NCBI GenBank assembly: GCA_030390025.1
Contig: CM059431.1
Coordinates: 119,786,001 to 119,850,000, forward strand
Direction of reading: 5' to 3'
DNA: 64,000 nt
Source of the DNA: Squalus acanthias
Lineage: Eukaryota
Shown: positions 28,976 to 61,069 of the stretch, one piece after another
Position numbering within the stretch: the stretch's first letter is position 1
Layout of the letters: each line of letters opens with the position of its first letter
The notes under the pieces: generated by a model
What the model saw: the letters and a program-made list of their open reading frames with translations, nothing else
Database searches by the model: none
Told to the model about the DNA's origin: nothing
Translations under genes and position numbers: made by a program

Positions 28976-30225
28976 ATGGATGCCATTTATACTGTGTCAC
29001 CTTGGTCCGCAGAATTGGACCACGATCAGCCGCAACACCATCAGCACCAGGCACACCTGTAGCACCAACAACAACACCACCAACCTTCTCCTCAACCACC
29101 TGATGCTGCACAGGACAGATGGCATCAGCACAGGGCTGCATCGTGCCGGAGGCGATATCCCCAACACAGGGTATACAGGCAGAGGATGAGCTTCCTCAAC
29201 ATGACTGAACAGCAGTGCCAAAGGAGGCTTAGGCTATCGCGCCAGGTTGTCGCAGACATTTGCATATTGCTCGAGCAAGACCTGCAGCCCAGAGGAGTGG
29301 GTGGACTTGCCTTACCAGTGGCTGTCAAAGTCACCAGCACCCTCAACTTCTTCGCCTCAGGCTCCTTCCAGGGATCTATGGCATCTTGCAGTCGGCCGCC
29401 CACAGATGCATCACACAGGTCACCGATGCCCTGTTTGACAACTCAGCCAATTATATAAATTTTGCAACTGATGAAGCCAGTGTTACTGAGCGGGCGCTTG
29501 ACTTTGCCACTCTGGTTGGCTTCCCACGGGTGCAGTGTGTCATCAACTGCACACATGTGGCCATCACTGCACCCCATCATAACCGAGGAGTCTTTGTCAA
29601 CTGCAAGGGTTTCCACTCCCCCAATGTGCATCTGGTGTGCAACCATAGGAAGATCATCACGCATGTGTATGCCAAATTCCCTGGAAGCTGCCATGACTGT
29701 TCATCCTTTGCCAGTCCACCCTCCCTCAGCTCTTCACACCTCCAAACAGACTTTCCAGCTGGCTGCTTGGAGACAAGGGCTAGCCACTAAAGACGTGGCT
29801 CATGACACCCTTGAGGAGACCAAGTACTGAGGCCCAGAAGAGTTACAATGAAAACCACATTTTCACCAGATATGTCATAGAGCATTCTCAAATTGCGCTT
29901 CAGATGCCTTGACAGATCTGGAGCAGCCCTTCAGTACGCACCATCCAGGGTTTCCAAAATCGTCGTGGTCTGCTGTGCCCTGCACAACATAGCACAGCAG
30001 CGAGGATTAGCGCTGCATGAGGAGCAAGGCACTGAGCGCACAGCCTCTTCAGAGGAGGAGGAGAAGGAGGAGGAGGAGGAGAAGGAGGAGGAGGAGGAGC
30101 ATCAGCTGGAAGATGAGGAGGAGGAGGAGCAGGAGGAACCCGAGTTCCAGATCCCACCAGCACCCTAGCATATTGCTCCCCTGGAGGCCAGGGATGGCCT
30201 CATCATGTCCAGATTTACGCAGTAC
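28976..30225 (+). pseudogene. Harbinger DDE transposase (HARBI1-like), disrupted
   Basis: Motifs [59 protein letters not shown]...CCALHNIA and an acidic tail. Frameshifts and stops present; first catalytic D reads N. Confidence 0.9.
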
Positions 30226-30554
30226 ACCCATATGGCTGCCGCATGCTTGGCTAGGGTGGCACTACCACACAGCAACACCATAAAGCATCCCTACAATGAC
30301 CAAGCCATTCCTTTCACACTGACCACCATTGCTGGAGGTACTGTTATGTCTCTCCATTCACTCCAACTCACTAAGCAACTTCCAAAGGTGCACACAAATG
30401 TGTCCAAAACTACGAAGTGGTGAGAATAAAGATTTTAATGGTTGACAATACATTAACGGAAACTTGCCAATAAAATTCACTAAAAGACTCAAGTGGCTAC
30501 CCTTGTGAATCTACTTGTGTGTCATCTTTCTCTTCCGCGTGCTTCAACAAAGTG

Positions 30555-32193
30555 TGTAGAATTCGCAAAATTATCGCGATTTTATAATAATGAGAAGGAG
30601 ACATAAAGTTTCGTATAAACAGCTTTATTTCAGCAAAATGCTGTCCTGTTTCAAAAAGGACACAAGCAGCCTGTAAAATGGCCGCCACGCCTCGTGGCAG
30701 AAGGTTCTAGACTTTCAGTAGGCAGACAAGATGGCGTTTCAATAAACATTTCAGCAAGATCGGACAGGACTCAGCACATTGGAGATAATGACAAGACGCG
30801 ATGGGTTTGCATTTTAAACATAAATACTGGAATCGGTTTTCCAGGTACAAACAAGAGCTATTGTACTGGACAATCAAGGACCCATCCAAAGACATTGACA
30901 TGCAAATCCCCCACGGCTCTACGATGAGAGAGCCGTTCGCAGGTACTCACAGCAAGCATTTGGAAGCCCCCAAAACCCCTCCAGGGAGACTACTAGCCGG
31001 TTCCACAATGGGAGAAATATTAACGGGTACTCAGACAGTTACAAGTATCACCGAAACCCATTAACGACAAGTACCACCCCATACAAGAAGTTTGAGCGCC
31101 AATACATGACAAAGATGAACATTTAGATTGGGCGGGAGATAAGGAATTACAGTACTATAAACTGTAGTGTCCAAACGTCCATCTTTCTCTTATTTCTTTA
31201 CCACCGACTGGAGCTCTGGACTCTCATTCTCTGATCCGCTAATTTTCCGGGAGTCAACCTCGTGGCTTGCCGTGAAGATCTGTGGAGAACTGGTCTGCGA
31301 AGGCCTGGAAGCGGGCGCACCATCCCGAGAAGTCGGTAAACGGTGTTGGAACCGAAGGCCCGAGAGGAGATGAGATGAGATGAGATGAGAAGAGAAGAAG
31401 ACGACAACATGTATTGCCACGGTCAGTAAGCCCCGACCGCGCCCAAAAATCGATTAACCACTTCTTTGAATTCTACCGACTTCTTCACAACTGGCCCAGG
31501 AAGACTCTTCTTCGAATTCTATCGAACCGGTGTAGGGCACAGGAAGACTCTTCTTCGAGTGGTGTCCGAACTCCGAGACCAACACAGATCTTCATGGTAG
31601 CAGACGATCCAGCCTGCTAGCCGGAGCCGAAAGCGAGTAAACAAGTGGGGTACAGAGACCCCTGATCAACACGTGAATAGTCAGGTGCTGTGGCGAAAAT
31701 ATCCGAGCAGCGTTTCAGAATTCTCCGAATTGTCCCGATTGGTGAGCATGAGTCTCGATCCTACAGATCTATTTTAGGACAGGCATTGATAGGGGAGGTT
31801 TTGGTTTTAAGGATAATTATAATGTGTGTCCCCTTTTACGATGTGTCGTGCGCTCCTCGTTTCCCTAAAATTAGTTTCATAACTGTGTGTAAGATTGTAC
31901 TGTCATTAATCTGTGCTTATGACATGTATCTCGTAATCTTGAACAATATGCAATAAAGATTTTCCATTTCGTACTATTCAACCGGGTCTACCTGAGTTTT
32001 CTCTGCATTATTGCTCTCGCACCTAAGTCCAGTGTCAGAACCGTAAGGGCGAGTGGGTCGAACCACTCACAGGTGTCTAGTGTCATCAGGCTGGCTGGAG
32101 ACCAGAACAGGCAACAAGGCCTAACACCGCACTAGCACCCAGGCTACGCACAGAGCAGCCTTCGGCACCGAGCCGAGCACGGTATCCCTTACA
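30555..32193 (+). repeat. 5' LTR (1639 bp)
   Basis: TGTAGAA...CCCTTACA. About 22 substitutions and 1 indel versus the 3' LTR by eye. TATAAA at 31156, AATAAA at 31952. Confidence 0.97.
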
Positions 32194-32198
32194 GGAAA

Positions 32199-32216
32199 TG
32201 GCAACCACGAAGGGAC
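32199..32216 (+). promoter_or_regulatory. Primer binding site, tRNA-Arg(UCG)
   Basis: TGGCAACCACGAAGGGAC, 5 nt after the LTR, is complementary to a vertebrate tRNA-Arg 3' end (...CCCUUCGUGGUUGCCA) as recalled. Confidence 0.8.
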
Positions 32217-32251
32217 ACTGGCAGCGAGAAAATAATGTGTTAGACCCTGGT

Positions 32252-33996
32252 ATGAATGTGCGAAAAGTTATGGAAGAGAGAATAGCAGATTATGTTTTTA
32301 GAAAAGTTAATTTGACTAAGAGATGGATAAGTGACCTGCTGGTGGATAAGCATCCGCTAGAGGCAGCCATGAGGTGGACAGGTAGCAAGGAGCATAAAAA
32401 ATCTGTGGAGAAAGCGGTCTGGCTGATGTGTTATAAAAGGCAAGTCCAGATTTCGGACCAGGTCATCATAGCGCAGGTAGCTCAGATCAAGGGTTTAGAG
32501 GTGGAAATGGACGAGAAGGTCGCGGGGGGGCAGCAGCTCATCGCGTCTTTAAATGCGTTGCATCAAGAACGCCAGTTAGTCGCCAACCACCATGAGGCGA
32601 AAATAGATTACCTCGAGTGCCAGGTCACTGAGGCAAAATTAAATGAGGGCTGAATAAGGGAACGATGTGCCCGCCTAGCTGCCCAAATAAAAGCCCAGGA
32701 AGAGAGCTTAAAGGGGGTTAGGGCGGCATATAAGATGGCCCTCGAGGATAAACATGAGGGGGGCGATCACAGCGTCTGCCAAAGAGAGATAGGGAACCTT
32801 AAAGAGGCCCTGAATAAAGCGCACGGCATGGTGTGCCTTATCAGCCCATCAGCACACCAGCCGCCGGTGGGTGGGGAATTTCAGAAATCCCTACCGAACA
32901 AAGCAGAGGAGGTATTTGCCACTGTGCCCTCCGCGCCACCCAGCTATTCAGCAACCTGCGTAAGGGAGGAAGTGGTAGAAGTAGAGGAAGAGGTCCCGAG
33001 GTAGAACAGTCCCCAGAGGTAGTGTCGAAGCCGGGACCGTTGTGTCCGGTCACGGGTCTCAAGAGGGGCCCGAACGGAGACGGTGGGGTAGCGGGGGATC
33101 TCCTCAACCAGCTTGTGTTGCCTCACAGCGCACACCAGCTGAGGGCTATGATCAGCCACGTACGGAAGCTGTCCGAGTCAGACGACCCTTCCGTACATTT
33201 CAGGGAGGTAGAGCAGACCGCAGCCATTAACGGCTGCGACGATGGGGAAAGGGCTAAAATGCTGTTGTTCTCCTTAGACAGCTCGATCCTCCAGTGTCTC
33301 TCAGACGCGAGTAAAAGGGGTAATAGGACCTATGAGGAGTTAAGAGATGAGGTCCTAGAAGTATTGGGGGCGGACGACGAAGGTCCGTTTGTGAGATTGG
33401 GACAGACTAAGCAGATGGAGGGAGAACCCCCGAAGGTTTTTGCCGACAGGCTGTGGCCTGTCTATCAGCGTAGTTGCCCAGGCGCGCCCGAGCGCGTTGA
33501 TTTAGACGGTGTTGGTTTAGCTCACTGGCTCAGATGTATAGTAGCCAACAGCTTACCAGCCGTGAGGGAGCAGGCCAAAGCATGGTTTGACCCCACTAAC
33601 CCCATCACAACTGAGGAGTCGGTCTTAAACCAACTCACGGTAGGGTACCGTAATACCAGGAGTACGGGAGCACATCCCCTTAAGGGAAAGGTGCATGAGG
33701 CGCGGCCCACAGCCCCGGCTCAAAAGGAGTGGCATCAGGAGGGAAATCGCGTCCCACAAGCCAGTAATGCTTGTTTCGGGTGCGGAAAGACAGGGCACTG
33801 GCGCAAGAACTGCAGGAACCCTTGGAAGGAGTCCAGGGATAAAAATCCCGCAGTCCGAGCCCAGGCGCCTGTCTCTGATAAGGGAGCTGGTGTGCCTATC
33901 CATCCCGATGCGATAGAATCAATGTTGGGAGCCATGCGGACCCTCATGATTTTGCACGGAGAGGTAGCAACAGCCCCAGGCAACCCGGACTTCTGA
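32252..33996 (+). pseudogene. gag: gag (N-terminal coiled coil, capsid-like core, CCHC knuckle)
   Basis: ORFs 32198-32653 and 32735-33004 are in the same frame, separated by TGA at 32651. ORF 32833-33996 follows a frameshift near 33000. CFGCGKTGHWRKNC at 33772-33813. Confidence 0.85.
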
Positions 33997-35178
33997 CTGG
34001 AACCGGCGCAGCCCGTTTACCTGTGTCCCTTTAAAAGACACGCACAGGAGGGGGTCCCCTGTGAGGAGGCCAGGTTAAGAGAGCAGGCCTTGAGGGAGGA
34101 GAACACCCGTTTAATGGGGAAAGTAGACGGGCTAGAAGGGCAGCTTGGAGAGCAGGCCCTGCGGGAGGAGAACGCCCGCTTAATGGGGAAAGTAGATGGG
34201 CTGGAAGGGCAGCTGAGAGAGCAGGCCTTGCGGGAGGAGAACGCCCGTTTAATGGGGAAAATGGATGGGTCAGAAGGGCAGCTTAGAGAGATAAAAGCAG
34301 CCTACTGGGTAGCCAGAAGCAGGGAGAATGAGGATTTTAATCAGTGCAATCTGTATAAGCCAGGTGCACAAGGGCCAACCACAGGGGCCAAACCTGCGAG
34401 TGGGGACTCGCAGCCCCGGGTAGGGCCACAGGGCACACAGGCAGGTAAAGCAGATTGCATCAGGGGAGAGGACATCCTAGCAAAATGTAGGATCCTTTAT
34501 TGGGGTTGGGAGTCAGATGAGGGAGAGTTCGAGGAGCTCGACCAGGATAGTGACACAAGCGAAGAGGAGCGGGAATCGGAGGACCAAAGGGTCGCCCCCG
34601 ATTCAGGTAAAGGGAAGATAGGGACTGCAGATGGAGATCCACACAGGGTGGAGACAGAAGATGCAGGTCCCGAACTCAGGGGGGCGGAGCTAGGGGAGGC
34701 GGAGCCAGCGGCTGTGGTGGGACCACAGGACGCGGCAATGGAAGCCTCAGAACCCAGTCCGTCCGCCTTGAACGTCTTGCCCTCGAGGGAGGTAGGGACT
34801 GCGAGTGAAGGGCTGCCTACTGGGCCAAGTAGGGCGGTGCCAGAGGCTGCAGATCCCGAGTTCAGGGAGGCGGAGTCAGGGGAGGCGGAGCCAGCGGCTA
34901 TGGCGGGACCACAGGTCGCAACGGTGGAAGTCTCAAAACCCGGTCCGTCGATCCTGGAGTTCCTGCCCTCGGTAGTTCCCCGTAGGTCAAGTCGGACACC
35001 CCAGCCCAGGAAGATGTGGATAAGTCCCCCGTATGTCCCTAGGCGTAGGTCCAGGGCTAAAGCAGCCCAGGGAGATCCCAGTCCCAGCGCAGCAGCAACA
35101 GGCTGCGGCAGATCAAAAGGAGGGGTCAGCGCCCTCCCACCGTTGGGAGAAGCCTGCGGCAGCAACCGCAGAATTTGA
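33997..35178 (+). CDS. Open frame continuing gag past UGA: coiled-coil repeats plus acidic/Pro-rich tail, occupying the pol position
   Basis: No stop from 33997 to 35175, same frame as the gag C-terminus (93 nt to the annotated 34090 start). Three LREQALREENARLMGKVDGLEGQ-type repeats. Confidence 0.6.
   Translation: MEPAQPVYLCPFKRHAQEGVPCEEARLREQALREENTRLMGKVDGLEGQLGEQALREENARLMGKVDGLEGQLREQALREENARLMGKMDGSEGQLREIKAAYWVARSRENEDFNQCNLYKPGAQGPTTGAKPASGDSQPRVGPQGTQAGKADCIRGEDILAKCRILYWGWESDEGEFEELDQDSDTSEEERESEDQRVAPDSGKGKIGTADGDPHRVETEDAGPELRGAELGEAEPAAVVGPQDAAMEASEPSPSALNVLPSREVGTASEGLPTGPSRAVPEAADPEFREAESGEAEPAAMAGPQVATVEVSKPGPSILEFLPSVVPRRSSRTPQPRKMWISPPYVPRRRSRAKAAQGDPSPSAAATGCGRSKGGVSALPPLGEACGSNRRI
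34078..34284 (+). repeat. 3 x 69-bp in-frame tandem repeat
   Basis: Unit AGAGAGCAGGCCTTG...GAAGGGCAGCTT. Confidence 0.95.
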
Positions 35179-35448
35179 GTAGGCCGCCCTGGGAACGGGC
35201 GGCGCTGTACAGTTATAAGATAAGTGATAAGTTTTTATAGTTTGTAAGTTTTAAGTTTGATAGTTTAATTTTGATAAGTAAAAGGTAAATGATGGGAGTT
35301 TAGATTAGGTTTAGTTAAAAGATCTGTCCAGTGCACATGTTTTTTTTTCGTGAGGCGAGGTCAGGGGACCCGCTCACCCTTCACAAAAGCCAGAGACTCT
35401 TGGGAGGCTGGCTACATCATTTTATCTGATCACAGGAACCAAGGAAGG

Positions 35449-37394
35449 ATGGAACGGATTCTGGTAGTGCTCGCGGCAATCGGATGTGGACTGGCCTATC
35501 GAGGCCGCACCAAGGATGTCGTGGTGTTTGGTTGCTCCGGGGACACGGCCCCCATCGCGGTGGATGGGACCGGGAGGCGAGAGGCTGAGGAGACCGCCAC
35601 CTACTTCCACAAGGGAAGGTGGCCAGGATGGCTGGGAACGAATTCAACTGAATACTCCAGCACAACGGGTTTTGCCTACAAAGAGACTTCTTTAATGTGC
35701 CCCAAAGTGAGGATCATCGCACCCAGAGTCAGCGTCACCGTCGGCAAACGGATTTGTTTGACTTGTAATGGGAATGTTCCATTGAGCCGATGGTGGTGGC
35801 TACGAAAGCTGAGCAAAACCATGAGGAACTCTTCGGTCGAGTGGGAGCGACTGGGTAATAATACCCATCGGACAATTACGGGGACTAACGGACAATTGAA
35901 AGTCTGTTGGGACAAATGGTGGGAACCGGATGAGGGAGTTTATGTTTGTATGTGGGGGTCGAAGCACGTTTGCCCCAAAGGCATCTCCATAGTTTTCATC
36001 AATCAGTGGCAGGATAATGGGAAAGGGATGAGGTGGGATGCAAGCACCAGGGGGTGCGGGGCTCCATACTCTCCGATCCCGGTAAACGCCACTGAGCTCA
36101 TTACGTGCCCACGCAAGGCCCCGCTCACGATTCCGGTGGTTCTGGCTGAGGAAGAAGGGTGCCCTAAAACCAGTAAGGGACCCGGGAATGGTTTGGTACT
36201 GGTCCCTACAGACCAGCTACTATTTCAGGGGGTACATTATGCGGTGGCCTCGGTGATTTTAAACCTCACCGAGGTGCGGTTGCCAAAGTGGTGCCCCAAA
36301 GAGACGGAACAATTATATCAGGTCCTGTTGACCAAAATGTTTAGGCAATTTTATGAGTTCGATTTCGCGGAAATTGATAAAACAAGTTTGTACACTGCAC
36401 CACATGAAGTTTTGGGCCAGGTGGGGAGGCAAAGAAGGGGTGTTGTGAACGACATGTTCACTGCGTTTAATAAGCATACCCAGTCCCCGTGGACTGCGGA
36501 CGATCAAACCACACCATTATGGGTGTAGTTTTACGTATGCCGGTTTTGGGCGACACAGCAAAGCCCGCCCCGGTATATCGGGTAGAGAACATTGGTGTCA
36601 TTCAGGGGGGAGCCCACATTCGCTATGCAGCGGTTCCACCTTACGTCATCCGCTGGGAGCAAACGATGACAGGTACAGATCTCTCTGGTTGTTGTGGCAG
36701 GGGAGCACACATAATCCTGTGTCCCCAGCACTTGAATGCCTTTTGATTACCACAGTGCGGGTTCAGAACGGCTGGCGCCAAGCCCATGAATTACACCATG
36801 GAGGCAATGGCACAAGATCATGTGCCTCCGCAGGTAGCATACCTCGGGGGTGGATCATATTGTGTTACCACTGCAGCGCAACACTACCAGCATGGAAACC
36901 GTAGCCGGTGTCCGGTAAGTGACAGCAGTTTCTGTTTTAAACCCAGGGCTCAAGTTCAAGTGGCACAGCAGCGAATTGTTCCGATCCCTGAACCATCCAC
37001 TGTTCATCTAACTGTAAAGGAGAATTTTACCGACTTGCAGCGATTCGTCGCGCATTTCGGATACCTCATTCCCCCTCTCCCTGAACACCTCACCAAACTT
37101 TTGAAGGCCGTTGCGGTTTCGCAAAAGCATTATTATACCCTTGAGCAGAAAACTGTCGAGATAGGGTCAGAGATTTTAGACATAGTAATCCCACCGTAGT
37201 GGGATCTGTTCACAAATATTCAAGTGCCGTCCTGGATCAGAATAACCTCCCACATTTTACTTGTATGCCAAGTGTTTATTGTGATATACTTATTGGTCGT
37301 GCATTGTAAGAGAGGCAAACGCCTTACCAAGAACGAAAACACGGGAGAGTGGCGAGAGCGTTACATGCGCATGCACGATGAAAGCACCGCATAA
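35449..37394 (+). pseudogene. env: env-like glycoprotein: signal peptide, Ig-like domain, furin site, Cys-rich F-like ectodomain, TM
   Basis: MERILVVLAAIGCGLA signal; RQRR|GVVNDMF at 36427-36438; frameshift/deletion near 36475; stops at 36744 and 37197; TM ILLVCQVFIVIYLLVVHC then KRGKR; stop at 37392-37394. Candidate splice acceptor CACAG ends at 35435. Confidence 0.85.
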
Positions 37395-37832
37395 ACGGCC
37401 AAAATGGCGTCACTCCAGTTTTTCCACGTGCGCCTCGGAATTATTGTAATTGATTGTGATTTTTCTCAGAAACTGTAATTAAGTTTGGAACTCTGTATGT
37501 TTAAGAGTTGTTTTTTTTTGATTATTTTGATTTTGTGTTGTTAATATGATTGTTTGGTTGTTTTTGTTTTCTTTTTCTTCCTTGAATAAAAAATATGCAT
37601 ATGCAGGTGGTGCGAGAGGCATCGGCCTGGGTACACCTGGAGGAAATACAAGCGGTGTAAGTTAAAGGCAAATGCTGCCTACGGTGTTAAAAAAATTTAA
37701 TTTTTCCTGGGAAATATGGACGACACGGAGACCCTAGATAGTTTTAAGTTATGGGAATTTTTAGATATGGAGAATCGAGATAATATTGCTCACCACAATG
37801 TTTTTGATACGATAAGCGGAGTTATTCGCATC

Positions 37833-37844
37833 AACGGGAGGGAC
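37833..37844 (+). promoter_or_regulatory. Polypurine tract
   Basis: AACGGGAGGGAC immediately before the 3' LTR. Confidence 0.7.
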
Positions 37845-39484
37845 TGTAGAATTCGCAAAATTATCGCGATTTTATAATAATGAGAAGGAGACATAAAGTT
37901 TCATATAAACAGCTTTATTTCAGCAAAATGCTGTCATGTTTCAAAAAAGGACACAAGCAGCCTGTAAAATGGCCGCCACGCCTCGTGGCAGAAGGTTCTA
38001 GACTTTCAGTAGGCAGACAAGATGGCGTTTCAATAAACATTTCAGCAAGATCGGACAGGACTCAGCACATTGGAGATAATGACAAGACGCGATGGGTTTG
38101 CATTTTAAACATAAATACTGGAATCGGTTTTCCAGGTACAAACAAGAGCTATTGTACTGGGCAATCAAGGACCCATCCAAAGACATTGACATGCAAATCC
38201 CCCACGGCTCTACGATGAGAGAGCTGTTCGCGAGTACTCACAGCAAGCATTTGGAAGCCCCCAAAACCCCTCCAGGGAGACTACTAGCCGGTTCCACAAT
38301 GGGAGAAATATTAACGGGTACTCAGACAGTTACAAGTATCACCGAAACCCATTAACGACAAGTACCACCCCATACAAGAAGTTTGAGCGCCAATACATGA
38401 CAAAGATGAACATTTAGATTGGGCGGGAGATAAGGAATTACAGTACTATAAACTGTAGTGTCCAAACGTCCATCTTTCTCTTATTTCTTTACCACCGACT
38501 GGAGCTCTGGACTCTCATTCTCTGATCCGCTAATTTTCCGGGAGTCAACCTCGTGGCTTGCCGCGAAGATCTGTGGAGAACTGGTCTGCGAAGGCCTGGA
38601 AGCGGGCGCACAATCCCGAGAAGTCGGTAAACGGTGTTGGAACCGAAGGCCCGAGAGGAGATGAGATGAGATGAGATGAGAAAAGAAGAAGACGACAACA
38701 TGTATCGCCACGGTCAGTAAGCCCCGACCGCGCCCGAAAATCGATTAACCACTTCTTTGAATTCTACCGACTTCTTCACAACTGGCCCAGGAAGACTCTT
38801 CTTCGAATTCTATCGAACCGGTGTAGGGCACAGGAAGACTCTTCTTCGAGTGGTTTCCGAACTCCGAGACCACCACAGATCTTCATGGCAGCAGACGGTC
38901 CAGCCTGCTAGCCGGAGCCGAAAGCGAGTAAACAAGTGGGGTACAGAGACCCCTGATCAACACGTGAATAGTCAGGTGCTGTGGCGAAAACATCCGAGCA
39001 GCGTTTTAGAATTCTCCGAATTGTCCCGATTGGTGAGCATGAGTCTCGATCCTACAGATCTATTTTAGGACAGGCATTGATAGGGGAGGTTTTGGTTTTA
39101 AGGATAATTATAATGTGTGTCCCCTTTTACGATGTGTCGTGCGCTCCTCGTTTCCCTAAAATTAGTTTCATAACTGTGTGTAAGATTGTACTGTCATTAA
39201 TCTGTGCTTATGACATGTATCTCGTAATCTTGAACAATATGCAATAAAGATTTTCCATTTCGTACTATTCAACCGGGTCTACCTGAGTTTTCTCTGCATT
39301 ATTGCTCACGCACCTAAGTCCAGTGTCAGAACCGTAAGGGCGAGTGGGTCGAACCACTCACAGGTGTCTAGTGTTACCAGGCTGGCTGGAGACCAGAACA
39401 GGCAACAAGGCCTAACCCCGCACTAGCACCCAGGCTACGCACAGAGCAGCCTTTGGCACCGAGCCGAGCACGGTATCCCTTACA
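37845..39484 (+). repeat. 3' LTR (1640 bp)
   Basis: Direct repeat of 30555-32193. Confidence 0.97.
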
Positions 39485-40860
39485 GGTGCTACCCCTCTAG
39501 TTTCAGCAGAGGTAGAGGCAGGCTGCTCACTTCCCTGCTGCAACTGCTTAGACACTCTTGGCGGTCGTCCTCTGGGTTTTGGAGCCTCTGATGGCCCCAC
39601 CAAAGTCTGCTCCTCCTGCGACTGTGCAGGGGCAGACTCGACCATCACGATCCGAGGAGACATCGGGGGCTCTGACTGAGGGGGTGGCAATGGGGGAAAA
39701 GTGCAAGCGCTTTGAGAGGTGCCCACACTTCCCTCTCCCATCTCACTGTCATCCCTCTCATCGGCCACCTGCACTTCGCTGCTAGAAAGGAGCTGGAGAG
39801 CACCTTGCTGCACATCAGTGGGGCCATGAGGACCCATGTCTATGTTGACATCCTTCCTAGACAGGAGGTCTATGAGGCTTTGCCATCTATTCTCCACAGA
39901 TAGCCATCTATTCTCCATAGAGACCATGTGCTTCTGTGAGTGGCGCATTAGCTGCTCCATGCCGCAAAACCTGTCAGAACCCCCTGCACTTCTTGCTGCA
40001 CCTCCAGGGTCGCCCTTTTTCTGGATGGCCGCTGAGGCTCAGCATCTGCATGCAGCTGAGCAGAGCTGGGAGCGTCCTGTGCCCTCCAGCGAGGAGTCTC
40101 CACTGCTGTCCCTGTCTCCACCATCTGCTCTTGCTCACTTATGACTTGTGACGGACCCAGTGACAACACTACTCTATCTTGCGTTGAACCCACTGAGGTA
40201 TGTGTATCTGCGCTGGTGCTGGGCGCGCTCATGTCTGGTGATGCTCACAGGCTGGAGGCTCCTCTGAGGAGTCGTCTTCTTCTTCCTCCGGGACAGTGCG
40301 GTGGGAGGGGGGAGGCTCTTGATGGACCTGTGGGAGAGTAAAGAGATGAGTTAGATATACCATATGAAGAATGGGTGCACATTATGACCATTCACTGGCT
40401 GCTGACATCAGTCCCCATATGAGTGACTGCTGTATGCCATGTAGCTCTATGATATGTAATTCTGTCACCAGGTTGCTGAGATGTCTCCCGCTCTCTGTCT
40501 CCCACCTCCAGCTGCTCGGCCACTCCCAAAACTTCCAATGCAGCCTCCTCTGCTGTTGTGAGGGTGGCAAATGATGGAGGCCCACCTCCAGTCCTCTCCC
40601 TCTCCCTCTTACTGTGCGTGCTCTTCTCCTGCAAGGAGTGAAAGAAGAGAAGTTTGAGTGAGATTGATGGAATGAGTGTAAGGAATGGATGGGTTGTAGC
40701 TTTAGAGGGAGACTATAATGGATTGGGGTGGCAATGCCAAGTGGCCTCCTTGTGTGGTGTTAGTTGGTATGATTGCATTAGGATGAGGGTGAGTGTGAGG
40801 GGTGGTTAGTCAGATGGAGATGTGATAATGTAGATAGAGAGAGAGGGATGGGTGGTCGTG

Positions 40861-55256: not shown

Positions 55257-57704
55257 CATAGATACATAGATACATAGAAGATAGGAGCAGGAGTAGGCCA
55301 TCCGGCCCTTCGAGCCTGCTCCGCCATTTAATGAGATCATGGCTGATCCTCCAATTCAGTATCCCGTCCCCGCCTTCTCTCCGTAACCCTTAACCCCTTT
55401 TGCCTGTAGAAATATATCTAATTCCCTCTTAAATATATTTAATGAGCTGGCGTACACTGCCCTCTGTGGCAATGAGTTCCACAGGTTCACCACCCTCTGA
55501 GTGAAGAAATTCCCCCTCATTTCTGTCCTAAATGGTTTAGCCCTTATCCTTAAATTATGTCCTCTAGTTCTGTTCTCACCCGCCAAGGGAAACATTCCTT
55601 CTGCATCTAGTCTGTCTAGACCTGTCAGAATTTTATACACTTCTATGAGGTCCCCTCTCAATCTTCTAAACTCCAGTGTGTACATCCCTAAACTACATAG
55701 TCTCTCCTCATAGGTCAATCCCGCCATTCCTGGTATCAGCCTGGTGAATCGCCGCTGCACCCCCTCCATGGCAAGAACATCTTTCCTCAGATGAGGCGAC
55801 CAAAACTGTACACAGTACTCGAGGTGTGGTCTCACCAGTGCCCTGTACAGCTGCAGCAAGGTATCCCTGTTCCTGTATTCCAACCCTTTTGCTATGAAGG
55901 CCAGCATACCGTTTGCCTTCTTGACCGCCTGTTGCACCTGCATGCTCGCCTTCAGTGACTGGTGTACAAGAACACCCAGGTCTCTCTGTACTTCCCCCTC
56001 TCCCAATTTATTGCCATTTAAATAATAATTTGCCCTCCCGTTCCTGCACCCAAGGTGGATAACTTCGCACTTGTCCACATTATAGTGCATCTGCCATTTA
56101 TCCGCCCAATCACCCAGTCTGTCCAAATCGCTCTGGAGCTTCCTGGTCTCCTCCTCTGAGCCCACCCCCCCTCCTAGTTTAGTGTCATCTGCAAATTTGG
56201 AAATGCTGCATCCGACTCCCTGATCCAGGTCATTAATGTAAATTGTGAACAGCTGGGGACCCAGGACAGATCCCTGTGGTACCCCACTTGTTACTGCCTG
56301 CCATTCAGAAAATGAGCCGTTTATTCCAACTCTCTGTTTTCTATCTGACAGCCAGTTCTCTATCCACGTCAATACTTTCCCCTTTATCCCATGAGCTTCA
56401 ATTTTCCATGCTAATCTTTTATGTGGGACCTTGTCGAAGGCCTTTTGGAAGTCCAGGTACACCACATCTACTGGCTCTCCCCCATCTATTTTACCAGTTA
56501 CTCCCTCAAAAAATTCCAATAGATTAGTCAAGCACGATTTACCCTTTGTAAATCCATGTTGACTCTGTCCTATCCTGTCCCCATTTGCTAAGTGCTCCGC
56601 TATTTCATCCTTAATGATGGACTCCAGCATTTTGCCCACAACTGATGTAAGGCTTACAGGTCTGTAATTACCTGCTTTTTCCTTACCCCCCTTTTTGAAT
56701 AGTGGGGTAACGTTAGCTACCCTCCAATCCATGGGCACTGTTCCCGAGTCTAATGAATTCTGAAAAATCATACTTAGTGCATCCGCTATCTCTAGGGCCA
56801 CCTCCTTCAGTACCCTAGGATGCATGTTATCAGGCCCTGGGGATTTGTCCGCCTTCAATCCCTTTAGCTTCCTTAACACCATATCCTTAGAGATACTGAT
56901 TTGCGTCAGTTCCTCCTTTGCCAATGTCCCTATTTTTCCCGATATCCCAGGGAGGTTTTTTGTGTCTTCCTTCGTAAAGACTGACCCAAAGTATGCATTT
57001 AGTTGGTCTGCCATTTCCTTATTTCCCGTTATATATTCCCCCGTATCTGACTGCAATGGACCAACTTTGGTTTTCACCAGTCTTTTCCTCTTGATATACT
57101 TATAAAAGCTTTTGGAGTTAGTTTTTATATTTTCCGCCAGCTTGCTTTCGTAAGCTATTTTGCCCCTCTTGATTAAGCCCTTTGTCCTCCTTTGCTCTAT
57201 CTTAAACTGTTCCCAATCTTCCGCTCTGGCGCTTTTTTTGGCTATTTTATACGCCCTATCTTTGGATTTTATGCTGTCTCTAATTTCCCCTGTTATCCAC
57301 GGTTGAGTCACCTTTTTAGATTTCCTTTTATGCCAGATTGGTATAAACAATTTTTGCAATTTTGTCATTCTATATTTAAATGCTTGCCATTGTTTATCTA
57401 CCTCCAGTCCTCCCAGGAACGTTGTCCAATCAGACCTACTCAGTTCCCGTCTAATGGCATCATAATTCCCCTTGTTTAAATTCAGGACCTTAGTCTCTGA
57501 GTCAATTTCTTCGCTCTCCATTTCGAGTGAGAAATCGATCATGTTATGATGGCTCTGACCCAAGGGTCCCCGTACAACAAGATTACTAATTAGTCCCTTC
57601 TCATTGCACAGTACCCAGTCCAATATAGCCTGTTCCCGAGTTGGTTCCTCGACATATTGATCCAGATAACCATCCCTTAAACACTCAAGGAATTCCTCCT
57701 CCTC
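55257..57704 (-). mobile_element. Young 5'-truncated CR1 LINE with uninterrupted RT frame
   Basis: ORF 55356-~57704 (NYRPVSLTS, DFQKAFD, GVPQGSVLGP, FADD) and (TATGTATC)n tail. Possible CTCATA TSD at 55255-55260 and 57702-57707. Confidence 0.96.
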
Positions 57705-57984
57705 ATATTTATATCTATATCCATCTCGTAGATTGTTAAGTATAGAAGGAGTGTTTACTGACAGTGGTACTAAGACCAAGATTAAAGTCTCTAGAGACAA
57801 CAAGTCCCTGATCAGGCCTTGTAGAACTTAAATCAAAGCTCCCTCAATATACCATTGAGGTCTAGAAATTTCTTATAAAGTTCATATTAAACCCTAACCA
57901 AGGTTAGGTCCTGACAAAATGGCAAACCCTGTCGGAATTGACCAAGTCTTTTTATTAGGAAATTCAAACGATTGCTAGCATCAA

Positions 57985-58605: not shown

Positions 58606-61069
58606 ATAGAACATAGAACATAGAACAGTACAGCACAGTACAGTTCCTTCGGCCCTCGATGTTGTGCCGAGCATTGTCTGAGACCAAGATCAAGCTATCA
58701 CACTCCCTATCTATCCATGTGCTTATCCAATAACCGCTTGAAAGTTCCTAAAGTGTCCGACTCCACTATCACAGCAGGCAGTCCATTCCACACCCCAACC
58801 ACTCTCTGAGTAAAGAATCTACCTCGGACATCGCTTCTATATCTCCCCCCATGCACCTTATAGTTATGCCCCCTTGTAACAGCTGCCTCTACCCGAGGAA
58901 ATAGTCTCTGAACATCCACTCTATCTATCCCCCTCATCATCTTATAAACCTCTATTAAGTCACCTCTCATCCTCCTCCTCTCTAAAGAGAAAAGCCCCAA
59001 CTCCCTCAATCTTTCCTCATAAGACCTCCCCCCCAAACCAGACAGCATCCTGGTAAATCTCCTTTGCACTCTTTCCAATGCTTCCACGTCCTTCCTATAG
59101 TGAGGTGACCAGAACTGCACACAATATTCCAAATGTGGTCTCACCAAGGTCCTGTACAGTTGCAGCATAACCTCACGGTTCTTAAACTCAAACCCTCTGT
59201 TAATAAACGCCAACACACCATAGGCCTTCTTTACTGCTCTATCCACTTGAGTGGCAACCTTCAGAGATCTGTGGATATGAACCCCCAGATCCCTCTGCTC
59301 CTCCACGTTCCTCAGAACCCTGCCGTTGACCCTGTAATCCTTATTCAAATTTGCCCTACCAAAATGAATCACCTTGCACTTATCAGGGTTAAATTCCATC
59401 TGCCATTTTTTGGCCCAGCTCTGCATCCTATCAATGTCTCTTTGCAGCCTACAACTGCCCTCCACCTCATCCACTACTCCACCAATCTTGGTGTCATCAG
59501 CAAATTTACTGATCCACCCTTCAGTCCCCTCCTCCAAGTCATTGATAAAAATCACAAACAGCAGAGGACCCAGCACCGACCCCTGTGGCACACCGCTGGT
59601 AACTGGTCTCCAGTCCGAATATGTTCCATCCACCACCACCCTCTGCCTTCTATGAGATAGCCAGTTACTTATCCAATCGGCCAAATTTCCCTCTATCCCA
59701 CAACTCCTTACTTTCTTCATGAGACGACCATGGGGAACCTTATCAAACGCCTTGCTAAAATCCATGTATATGACATCAACTGCTCTACCTTCATCTACAC
59801 ACTTAGTTACCTCCTCAAAGAATTCAATCAAATTTGTTAGGCAAGACTTACCCTTCACGAATCCGTGTTGACTTTCCCTGATTAAGTTGCCCCTTTCCAA
59901 ATGGTCATAAATCCTATCCCTCAGGACCTTTTCCATTATCTTACCAACCACCGAAGTAAGACTAACCGGCCTATAATTACCAGGGTCATTCCTATTTCCT
60001 TTCTTGAAGAGAGGAACAACATTCGCCACTCTCCAGTCCTCTGGCACCATTCCCGTGGACAGTGAGGACCCAAAGATCAAAGCCAGAGGCTCTGCAATCT
60101 CCTCCCTTGCCTCCCAAAGAATCCTAGGATATATCCCATCTGGCCCAGGGGACTTATCGACCCTCAGGTTCTTCAAAATTGCTAAAACATCTTCCCTCAG
60201 AACATCTACCACCTCCAGCCTATCCACCTTTATCACACTCTCATCCTCAAGAACATGGCCCCTCTCCTCGGTGAACACTGACGAAAAGTATTCATTCATC
60301 ACCTCTCCTATCTCTTCTGACTCCATGCACAAGTTCCCACTACTGTCCTTGACCGGCCCTACCCTCACCCTGGTCATTCTTTTATTTCTCACATAAGAGT
60401 AAAAAGCCTTGGGGTTTTTCTTGATCCGACCCGCCAAGGACTTCTCATGCCCCCTCCTAGCTCTCCTAAGCTCTTTTTTTAGCTCCGTCCTTGCTACCTT
60501 GTACCCCTCAATTGACCCAACTGAACCTTGTTTTCTCATCCTTACACACGCTTCCTTTTTCCTCTTGACTAGACATTCAACCTCTTTTGTGAACCATGGT
60601 TCTCTCACTCGGCCATTTCCTCCCTGCCTGACAGGGACATACCTATCAAGGACACACAGTAATTGCTCCATGAAAAAGCTCCACTTTTCGTTTGTGCCTT
60701 TCCCTGATAGTTTCTGTTCCCATCTTGTACTCCCTAATTCTTGCCTAATCGCATCATAATTACCCCTCCCCCAATTATAAACCCTGCCCTGCCGTATGGC
60801 CCTATTCCTCTCCATTGCAATAGTGAAAGTTACCGAAAATGGTCACTATCTCCAAAGTGCTCTCCCACATACAAATCAATCACTTGGCCCAGTTCATTAC
60901 CCAGTACCAAATCCAACGTGGCCCCACCTCTTGTCGGCCTATCCACATATTGTGTCAGGAAACCCTCCTGCACACACTGTGCAAAAACTATCCCATCCGA
61001 ACTGTTTGACCTATAAAGGTTCCAATCAATATTTGGAAAGTTGAAGTCACCCATGACAACTACTCTGTG
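58606..61069 (-). mobile_element. Young 5'-truncated CR1 LINE (second subfamily)
   Basis: ORF 58707-60815 with full RT motifs. One frameshift to the endonuclease part (MGDFNFPNIDW, GDSDH). (TTCTATG)n tail. Confidence 0.96.

Follow-up and report, generated by a model that had tools for sequence, protein, structure and literature searches.

An LTR element without pol

We analysed a stretch of 64,000 nucleotides from Squalus acanthias (assembly GCA_030390025.1, contig CM059431.1, positions 119,786,001 to 119,850,000 of the forward strand; hereafter the window, with position 1 as its first base), which contains a complete long terminal repeat (LTR) element at 30555-39484, with three coding regions between its LTRs on the plus strand. 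A preliminary description, made from the letters alone, had presented it as an element with gag and env and without pol. Alignment of the LTR pair placed the 5' LTR at 30555-32193 (1,639 bp) and the 3' LTR at 37845-39484, both with TG...CA ends (TGTAG...TTACA). As aligned (30555-32195 and 37845-39486) they are direct repeats, and the identity of about 98.6% formerly judged by eye proved accurate (98.6% over 1,642 columns, with 22 mismatches and one gap). The four-base flanks reported at the two ends exist, AGTG at 30551-30554 and GGTG at 39485-39488, but they agree in only three of four bases and form an imperfect target-site duplication.

Sequences resembling both priming signals of the preliminary description were found. 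A polypurine tract (PPT)-like run, GGGAGGGAC (37836-37844), adjoins the 3' LTR. An 18-mer resembling a primer-binding site (PBS), TGGCAACCACGAAGGGAC (32199-32216), begins with TGG 5 nt past the 5' LTR and is conserved across the other copies described below, most of which read TGGCGACC; it is reminiscent of a tRNA-Arg PBS. The gag start codon at 32198 overlaps this 18-mer (32198-32216), placing it within the first gag codons, and the PBS itself encodes Gag residues 1-7 (MATTKGH). No leader separates PBS from gag, and a database homologue also opens with MATTKGH. The same 15-nt PBS core occurs in a different repeated element with unrelated surroundings (L045-L047, on C2450), and another retroelement family of this genome may thus use the same primer.

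Neither Pfam nor translated searches recovered the enzymes of pol in the window element. The eight long internal frames gave no Pfam match to reverse transcriptase (RT), ribonuclease H (RNase H), integrase (IN) or protease, and a tblastn search in which two full-length relatives supplied the pol queries matched only pol residues 1-16 and the last ~294. The reported absence of RT, RNase H and integrase is thus upheld, and neither RT nor integrase was detected in the interval 34000-35400. The two relatives (L031+L032 and L033+L034), located through LTR matches ~11 kb apart in the 3.7-Gb assembly, align to the window over 30555-33964 and 34339-39447 and hold 3.7 kb between these blocks. This segment encodes, in the gag frame and straight after the gag stop, RVP, RVT_1, RT_RNaseH_2, RNase_H, Integrase_H2C2 and rve, in that order (Pfam).

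Aligned base by base, the pol deletion begins after ...TACCTGTGTCC (left breakpoint, about 34028) and ends before AATCAGTGCAA (right breakpoint, 34339). The first ~11 protease/pol codons (LEPAQPVYLCP, 33997-34028) continue in the gag frame up to the left breakpoint. They are followed by an insert of ~310 bp (34029-34338) that is specific to pol-less copies and that the long relatives lack. In the window, as in copy L038, a 69-bp (23-codon) unit is repeated in tandem three times (about 34067-34290), while one or two repeats are present elsewhere; at the peptide level the insert shows a weak likeness to the end of the Gag N-terminal coiled coil (BLASTP E 3e-5; 106 columns, 27% identical). From the right breakpoint to the TGA at 35176-35178 runs an integrase/pol C-terminal tail of ~280 codons (34339-35178), acidic with a basic end, which is the natural pol end of the long relatives, down to identical terminal residues. 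Within this tail, a 141-nt direct repeat (34645-34785 and 34831-34971, 79% identity) encodes a repeated acidic peptide motif.

The stop-free frame at 33997-35178, in the gag frame and directly behind the gag stop, had been taken for an independent ORF2. Its length of 393 codons and its openness are correct, but not its independence: the tblastn matches at the two pol ends, the positions of the breakpoints and the Gag-like insert peptide together show that it is a fused pol remnant and no new gene, in which a Gag-like coiled-coil insert joins the N-terminus of pol to the C-terminal tail of integrase. No homologue of the frame was found among database proteins of 216-688 aa, and the ESM Atlas returned sub-threshold leads only, both for this frame (0.76) and for Env (0.84).

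Decay of the window copy

The preliminary description had also listed gag and env as present, which they are, but neither gene is intact. The gag interval given there (32818-33996) covers only the 3' two thirds of a gene that starts at the ATG at 32198, encodes an N-terminal coiled coil, a helical middle and a CCHC knuckle (33772-33813), and ends with the TGA at 33994-33996. Measured against an open family copy, it has lost 1 nt near reference nt 797 and acquired two in-frame stops, one of them at 32651-32653. The env gene (35449-37394) extends from the ATG at 35449 to the stop at 37392-37394 and encodes a signal peptide, an RQRR site (36427-36438) and a transmembrane stretch (37242-37307); the fold of its core was judged in an intact relative (see below). 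A frameshifting deletion of 406 bp at 36472 takes out the stretch right after the RQRR site, and two in-frame stops follow (36744-36746 and 37197-37199). The window copy is therefore a dead, decayed member of its family. The window is the sole genome match of a 27-mer across the env-deletion junction (at most two mismatches). Separately, one place on C11 aligns collinearly over the env-deletion point, with 93% identity.

Pol-less copies across the genome

We aligned 11 pol-less copies, namely the window element and L035-L044. Both deletion breakpoints are common to all 11, which lie on different chromosomes, and the gene order is the same throughout. With window positions 33900-35300 as query, the right junction is crossed by the alignment in 39 of the 40 scored places (window included), and in the remaining one the alignment begins at the junction. 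For genome-wide counts we used 27-mers, allowing at most two mismatches unless stated, and the reversed-pattern control gave 0 each time. The pol-less left junction has 1,302 matches in the 3.7-Gb genome and an insert-internal pattern has 1,163, with matches of both on all large contigs listed; the pol-bearing gag/protease junction has 2,189. Pol-less junction matches thus make up about 37% of the two junction counts combined. A pattern at the LTR start has 2,289 matches, fewer than two per internal region, and therefore gives no basis for a solo-LTR estimate.

Target duplications of 4 bp could be compared in the seven copies with both ends in view: four are perfect (CTGG, AAAC, CTCT, AAAC), two agree in three of four bases (the window and L042), and L040 has none. 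The shared breakpoints, the number of junction matches and these distinct duplications bear out the earlier proposal of a non-autonomous family with a common architecture, which is not unique to this locus. Within a copy, the two LTRs are 97.4-99.5% identical (six pol-less copies; 98.3-98.8% in two pol-bearing ones), and the LTRs of other copies are 89-97% alike to those of the window. Inside the insert, pairs of copies differ by 8.1% in the median and by 13.7% at most (161 ungapped columns). The insert, being specific to pol-less copies, cannot come from a helper, and its distances far exceed the divergence of LTRs within a copy; the pol-less lineage has therefore been replicating and diversifying for much longer than the age of any sampled insertion.

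L036 (C7:70672000-70681999, minus strand) is rearranged: it is without about 1.1 kb of gag, and the ~190 bp leader that follows the LTR is repeated after the 3' LTR. The last ~37 bp of the LTR (32157-32193 in the window) come in two subtypes. The window, L036, L037, L039 and L043 align to the end, while the LTR 3' end of L035, L038, L040, L041, L042 and both long copies aligns only to 1602, and that of L044 only to 1560.

Pol-bearing relatives and recombination

The relatives with the same LTR and PBS that the preliminary description had proposed looking for exist, both as the two 11-kb elements and as the 2,189 gag/protease junctions. They have the LTR type, PBS, gag, integrase tail and env in common with the pol-less copies, at 92-97% identity for LTR, PBS, gag and env, and their PBS (TGGCGACCACGAAGGGAC), PPT and LTR type are those of several pol-less copies. 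Among the best 58 scored matches to a 773-residue pol query, 30 lie in open frames of 1,482-1,520 codons without a stop; an open frame of ~1,496 codons is the whole length of the pro-pol frame. The env gene is uninterrupted in two of seven pol-bearing copies and in four of nine full-length pol-less copies, and gag, remnant frame and env are all open together in none of the 11 sampled pol-less copies. We also considered mutual complementation, in which pol-bearing copies would be those without env; the numbers of open env genes just given (2/7 versus 4/9) lend it no support.

In a maximum-likelihood tree of the shared tail and the 5' part of env (window 34339-36472; 11 pol-less and seven pol-bearing copies), the two classes interleave. 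The label needs six changes, no better than shuffled labels, and mixed sister pairs are supported (L041 with L057, 100/100). A single origin of the junction combined with an interleaved tree implies that pol-less and pol-bearing genomes have recombined repeatedly. Such a tree is what joint packaging in one particle would yield, and it is the best, though indirect, evidence of a helper relation. At the 3' end of gag (about 33960-33990), a 24-bp in-frame indel separates two C-terminal variants, one of which is present in four pol-less copies and both long ones. The synonymous substitution rate (dS) of this part is 0.22, above that of the rest of gag, and suggests a mosaic ancestry.

Selection on the retained genes

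We estimated the ratio of nonsynonymous to synonymous substitution rates (dN/dS) among pol-less copies only, with L037 dropped. The values are 0.20-0.21 for gag and 0.12-0.15 for env, 0.47 for the integrase tail and 0.37 for the insert; wrong-frame controls gave 0.72-2.18. In a clade composed entirely of pol-less copies (the window, L036, L039 and L043), we computed the corresponding ratio of proportions of differences (pN/pS): env has 0.18-0.25, gag 0.23-0.41 and the tail 0.49-1.61. Both gag and env thus evolve under purifying selection in pol-less copies.

The remnant frame is without stop or internal frameshift in nine of the 11 copies, and the other two forward frames hold 12-19 stops. The exceptions are L044, with one in-frame stop, and L037, in which a deletion at the end of gag shifts the frame. 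All indels within the frame are multiples of three (69, 132, 138, 6 and 9 nt). The frame is thus maintained open, with an amino-acid sequence that is only loosely constrained.

Envelope and Gag proteins

To characterise Env we modelled, from 21 sequences, the product of an intact env in a pol-less copy (P0004, 826 codons counted from the upstream stop). The predicted local distance difference test score (pLDDT) is 70-93 over about residues 280-700. A Foldseek search of the PDB gave paramyxovirus and pneumovirus F proteins as top matches (best 1ztm, E 6.6e-12, probability 1.00), and all 50 rows shown by VIA-align are F proteins as well; the best has a Z of 13.1 over 327 residues with a root-mean-square deviation of 14.6, placing model residues 288-693 on chain residues 26-431. 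Sequence searches gave no comparable signal: the intact env and 20 relatives matched no Pfam family at E ≤0.1 beyond scattered single matches, PF00523 reached an E of 0.15 for one fragment (not significant) and gave none for the intact env, a phmmer search of the intact env against PDB sequences had no match, and a profile search returned coiled-coil noise only. Judged from the predicted structure, the core of Env has the fold of a paramyxovirus F protein, a likeness that is structural and not at the level of sequence. Ahead of this core lies an extra N-terminal region of ~245 mature residues (P0004 ~44-287; window 35449 to about 36150), with pLDDT <50, and the window env has a weak Ig_3 match there (E 0.07).

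Gag has 607 aa. Its CCHC motif is present, and scores 17.6-18.6 bits against Pfam zf-CCHC, under the cut-off of 20.8. The Gag model is of low confidence (mean pLDDT 44.5); its secondary structure has one long helix (69-183) and a block of helices (312-489). The named database homologues of Env and Gag are from a skate and a sawshark, as befits an elasmobranch host.

The surroundings of the element contain other mobile sequences: a DDE_Tnp_4 transposase fragment upstream (29233-29787, plus strand), and downstream two long RVT_1 frames of other retroelements (55359-57827 and 58710-60842, both on the minus strand). No adjoining host gene was recognised in the window.

Proposed origin and mobilisation of the pol-less copies

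We propose that the window element is a decayed copy of a multi-copy, pol-deleted subfamily of an endogenous retrovirus (ERV) that is retrovirus-like and carries an F-type envelope, and that this subfamily was mobilised in trans by its pol-bearing relatives; we give this explanation a probability of about 0.85. A single ancestral event would have removed 3.7 kb of pro-RT-RNase H-IN, and the first ~11 pol codons would then have been fused in frame, through the ~310-bp coiled-coil insert, to the integrase C-terminal tail. The deleted genome retained its requirements in cis, namely LTRs, PBS, PPT and probably the signals for packaging and env expression, along with gag and env. Its RNA would enter particles together with Gag-Pol made by pol-bearing relatives in the same cell, whose enzymes would reverse transcribe and integrate it, generating new insertions flanked by 4 bp. 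Pol is most likely to have been supplied by these cognate relatives, judging from the sequences compared. We further infer translation of a Gag-deltaPol read-through product and an env-dependent spread.

Several observations weigh against this explanation. The pol-less copies aligned are the best matches to the window and as such a biased sample. Two variants of the right junction (at most three mismatches) gave 184 and 15 matches, versus 1,302 for the left junction. We attribute this shortfall to the fast divergence of the 3' part of the insert, the right junction having been inspected in aligned copies only: the left half of the right-junction patterns falls in the fast-diverging, indel-prone end of the insert, and the first 322 bases of the query 33900-35300 match many copies at only 81-83%. 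L037 (C6:85762000) and L039 (C6:81948578), 3.8 Mb apart, have the same 5' flank, and the provirus may thus have been copied as part of a segmental duplication. Same-strand junction matches ~7.7-7.8 kb apart (C1:143657921/143665644/143673362; C1:204985288/204993093; C2:133593989/133601708) likewise suggest tandem arrays of pol-less units sharing LTRs. A primer tRNA was not found: the complement of the PBS without CCA has 16 exact genome matches (control 6), the 11 of them examined with ARAGORN contain no tRNA gene, and at least six of these 11 are ERV copies with a mutated CCA. Folding of 100 nt downstream of the gag stop in three copies, with pseudoknots outside the assessment, gave no significant structure (z -0.09, -0.88 and -1.33), so that read-through is argued from the frame layout alone. 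The low dN/dS of gag and env may in part be imported from selection in pol-bearing genomes, because pol-less and pol-bearing copies recombine. Finally, five sequencing runs from two studies, only guessed to be RNA and not listed as such, contain parts of the stretch. Their contigs cover, at ≥90% likeness, 30 of 30 bins in three runs and 29 in a fourth; one listed contig piece, X1 (34231-34392), bridges the right junction, and no splice-like joint in the contigs was convincing.

A fuller version of our explanation, which we advance tentatively and regard as possible yet doubtful, is a stable satellite/helper retroviral system. The loss of pol would be ancient (insert divergence up to ~14%), Gag and the F-type Env would be kept under purifying selection, and the pol-less genomes, about a third of the family, would spread by env-dependent reinfection through helper Gag-Pol, with constant recombination. 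The read-through product, in which the number of Gag-like coiled-coil repeats varies, might then be an evolved device that competes for, or modulates, helper assembly, and the two-component system may still be active, because dozens of helper pol frames are open.

The 393-codon frame might instead be more than a passive remnant and have a function as an accessory or fusion protein. Read-through would then make a Gag-deltaPol product whose additional coiled-coil repeats help the satellite to compete for the helper or to interfere with it. In favour of this, the frame is open in nine of 11 copies, whereas the other two forward frames hold 12-19 stops. Its indels in multiples of three, the variation of the repeat number from one to three, the likeness between the insert and the coiled coil of Gag (27% identity, E 3e-5) and the dN/dS of tail (0.47) and insert (0.37) fit the same idea. 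However, gain or loss of a repeat preserves the frame automatically, because the unit is 69 nt long, and in the all-pol-less clade of the window the tail is near neutral (pN/pS 0.49-1.61). Pfam assigns the frame to no family above threshold, the database search yielded no homologue of comparable length, and no predicted structure supports read-through. We consider such a function unlikely.

That the copy number arose by segmental or tandem duplication in DNA of one deleted provirus, and not by retrotransposition, is in our estimate very improbable. The flank shared by L037 and L039 on one chromosome, the LTR-sharing arrays with a ~7.7-kb spacing and the leader sequence after the 3' LTR of L036 are what such duplication would leave behind. 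However, target duplications differ among copies (CTGG, AAAC), the LTRs within a copy are more alike (97.4-99.5%) than those of other copies are to the window's (89-97%), and matches occur on all large contigs listed. Similarly slight is the chance that the enzymes came from an unrelated RT source and not from the cognate pol-bearing family. Other RT-bearing elements are at hand, such as the two RVT_1 frames in the window, and at least one other element type has the same PBS core; yet LTR, PBS, gag and env are 92-97% identical between pol-less and pol-bearing copies, the interleaved tree is as expected from co-packaging and template switching, and open cognate pol frames are numerous. A one-off internal deletion confined to one provirus, which the preliminary description had kept as its alternative, can practically be dismissed: internal deletions are common in old proviruses, and the window does carry a private one, the 406 bp of env, whose junction matches the window alone, but the pol junction recurs at 1,302 places, with the same breakpoints in all 11 copies on different chromosomes.

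This lineage discarded its enzymes and kept both structural genes under selection. It numbers about 1,300 copies, next to about 2,200 with pol, and is a natural case for how retroviral satellites and helpers share gene products. It bears on why structural genes are retained, whether through a cis-preference of Gag or through env-dependent germline reinfection, and on how frequently co-packaged genomes recombine. It also shows that the genome of a cartilaginous fish can harbour abundant and young retrovirus-like elements whose envelope is of F type.

Comparison with known systems

The lokiretroviruses have the order gag - pro-RT-tether-RH-IN - env, an Env resembling paramyxovirus and pneumovirus F proteins and, in some, an SMC-like gene (Wang & Han 2020, PMC7947760). 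This corresponds to the layout of the pol-bearing relatives, to the coiled-coil-rich Gag and nearby sequence, and to an Env with signal peptide, basic cleavage site, coiled coils, a transmembrane segment and a resemblance to F proteins, here by fold. The words cartilaginous, Chondrichthyes and shark are absent from its main text. Among solved structures, the helper RT is nearest to those of murine leukaemia virus and xenotropic murine leukaemia virus-related virus (E 1e-55 to 1e-56), followed by foamy virus (1e-49 to 1e-53), Ty3 (1e-35) and human immunodeficiency virus (1e-12), a ranking that leaves its lineage unsettled. The family matches the description of lokiretroviruses in Env fold, pol order and Gag coiled coils, the placement of the RT forming no part of this match.

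The zebrafish families BHIKHARI Bik-1 and Bik-2 are non-autonomous endogenous lokiretroviruses that are described as having gag only and neither pol nor env (bioRxiv 10.1101/2024.03.25.586437). As described there, they resemble the present family as non-autonomous LTR elements near retroviruses with F-type Env, without pol, in many copies and recently active, and the open gag of Bik-1 likewise encodes an N-terminal coiled coil (617 aa, versus 607 aa here). Unlike them, the shark family has a pol remnant in frame and a full env on which purifying selection acts, its Gag has a CCHC knuckle, and its host is a cartilaginous fish and not a teleost. EAV-HP of the chicken is low-copy and alpharetrovirus-like. 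One of its insertions is described as having lost pol completely, and gag and env in part (PMC3554524). According to the same source, EAV-HP too lacks the whole of pol between LTRs that enclose gag- and env-derived sequence and still made new insertions, whereas in the present family many copies have a complete gag and env, the copies number ~1,300 and the Env is of F type.

Deleted LTR elements that rival or outnumber their autonomous partners and are mobilised in trans include ETn/MusD and IAP I-delta-1 of the mouse and LARD, TRIM and TR-GAG of plants. These are without env and mostly noncoding, in contrast to the family described here, in which both structural genes are kept. ERVs usually multiply best once env is lost, and the known non-autonomous ERV derivatives keep little, or only gag. 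What is unusual here is a complete env kept under selection in a pol-less lineage, together with a high copy number, a Gag-like repeat insert in the pol remnant and a cartilaginous-fish host.

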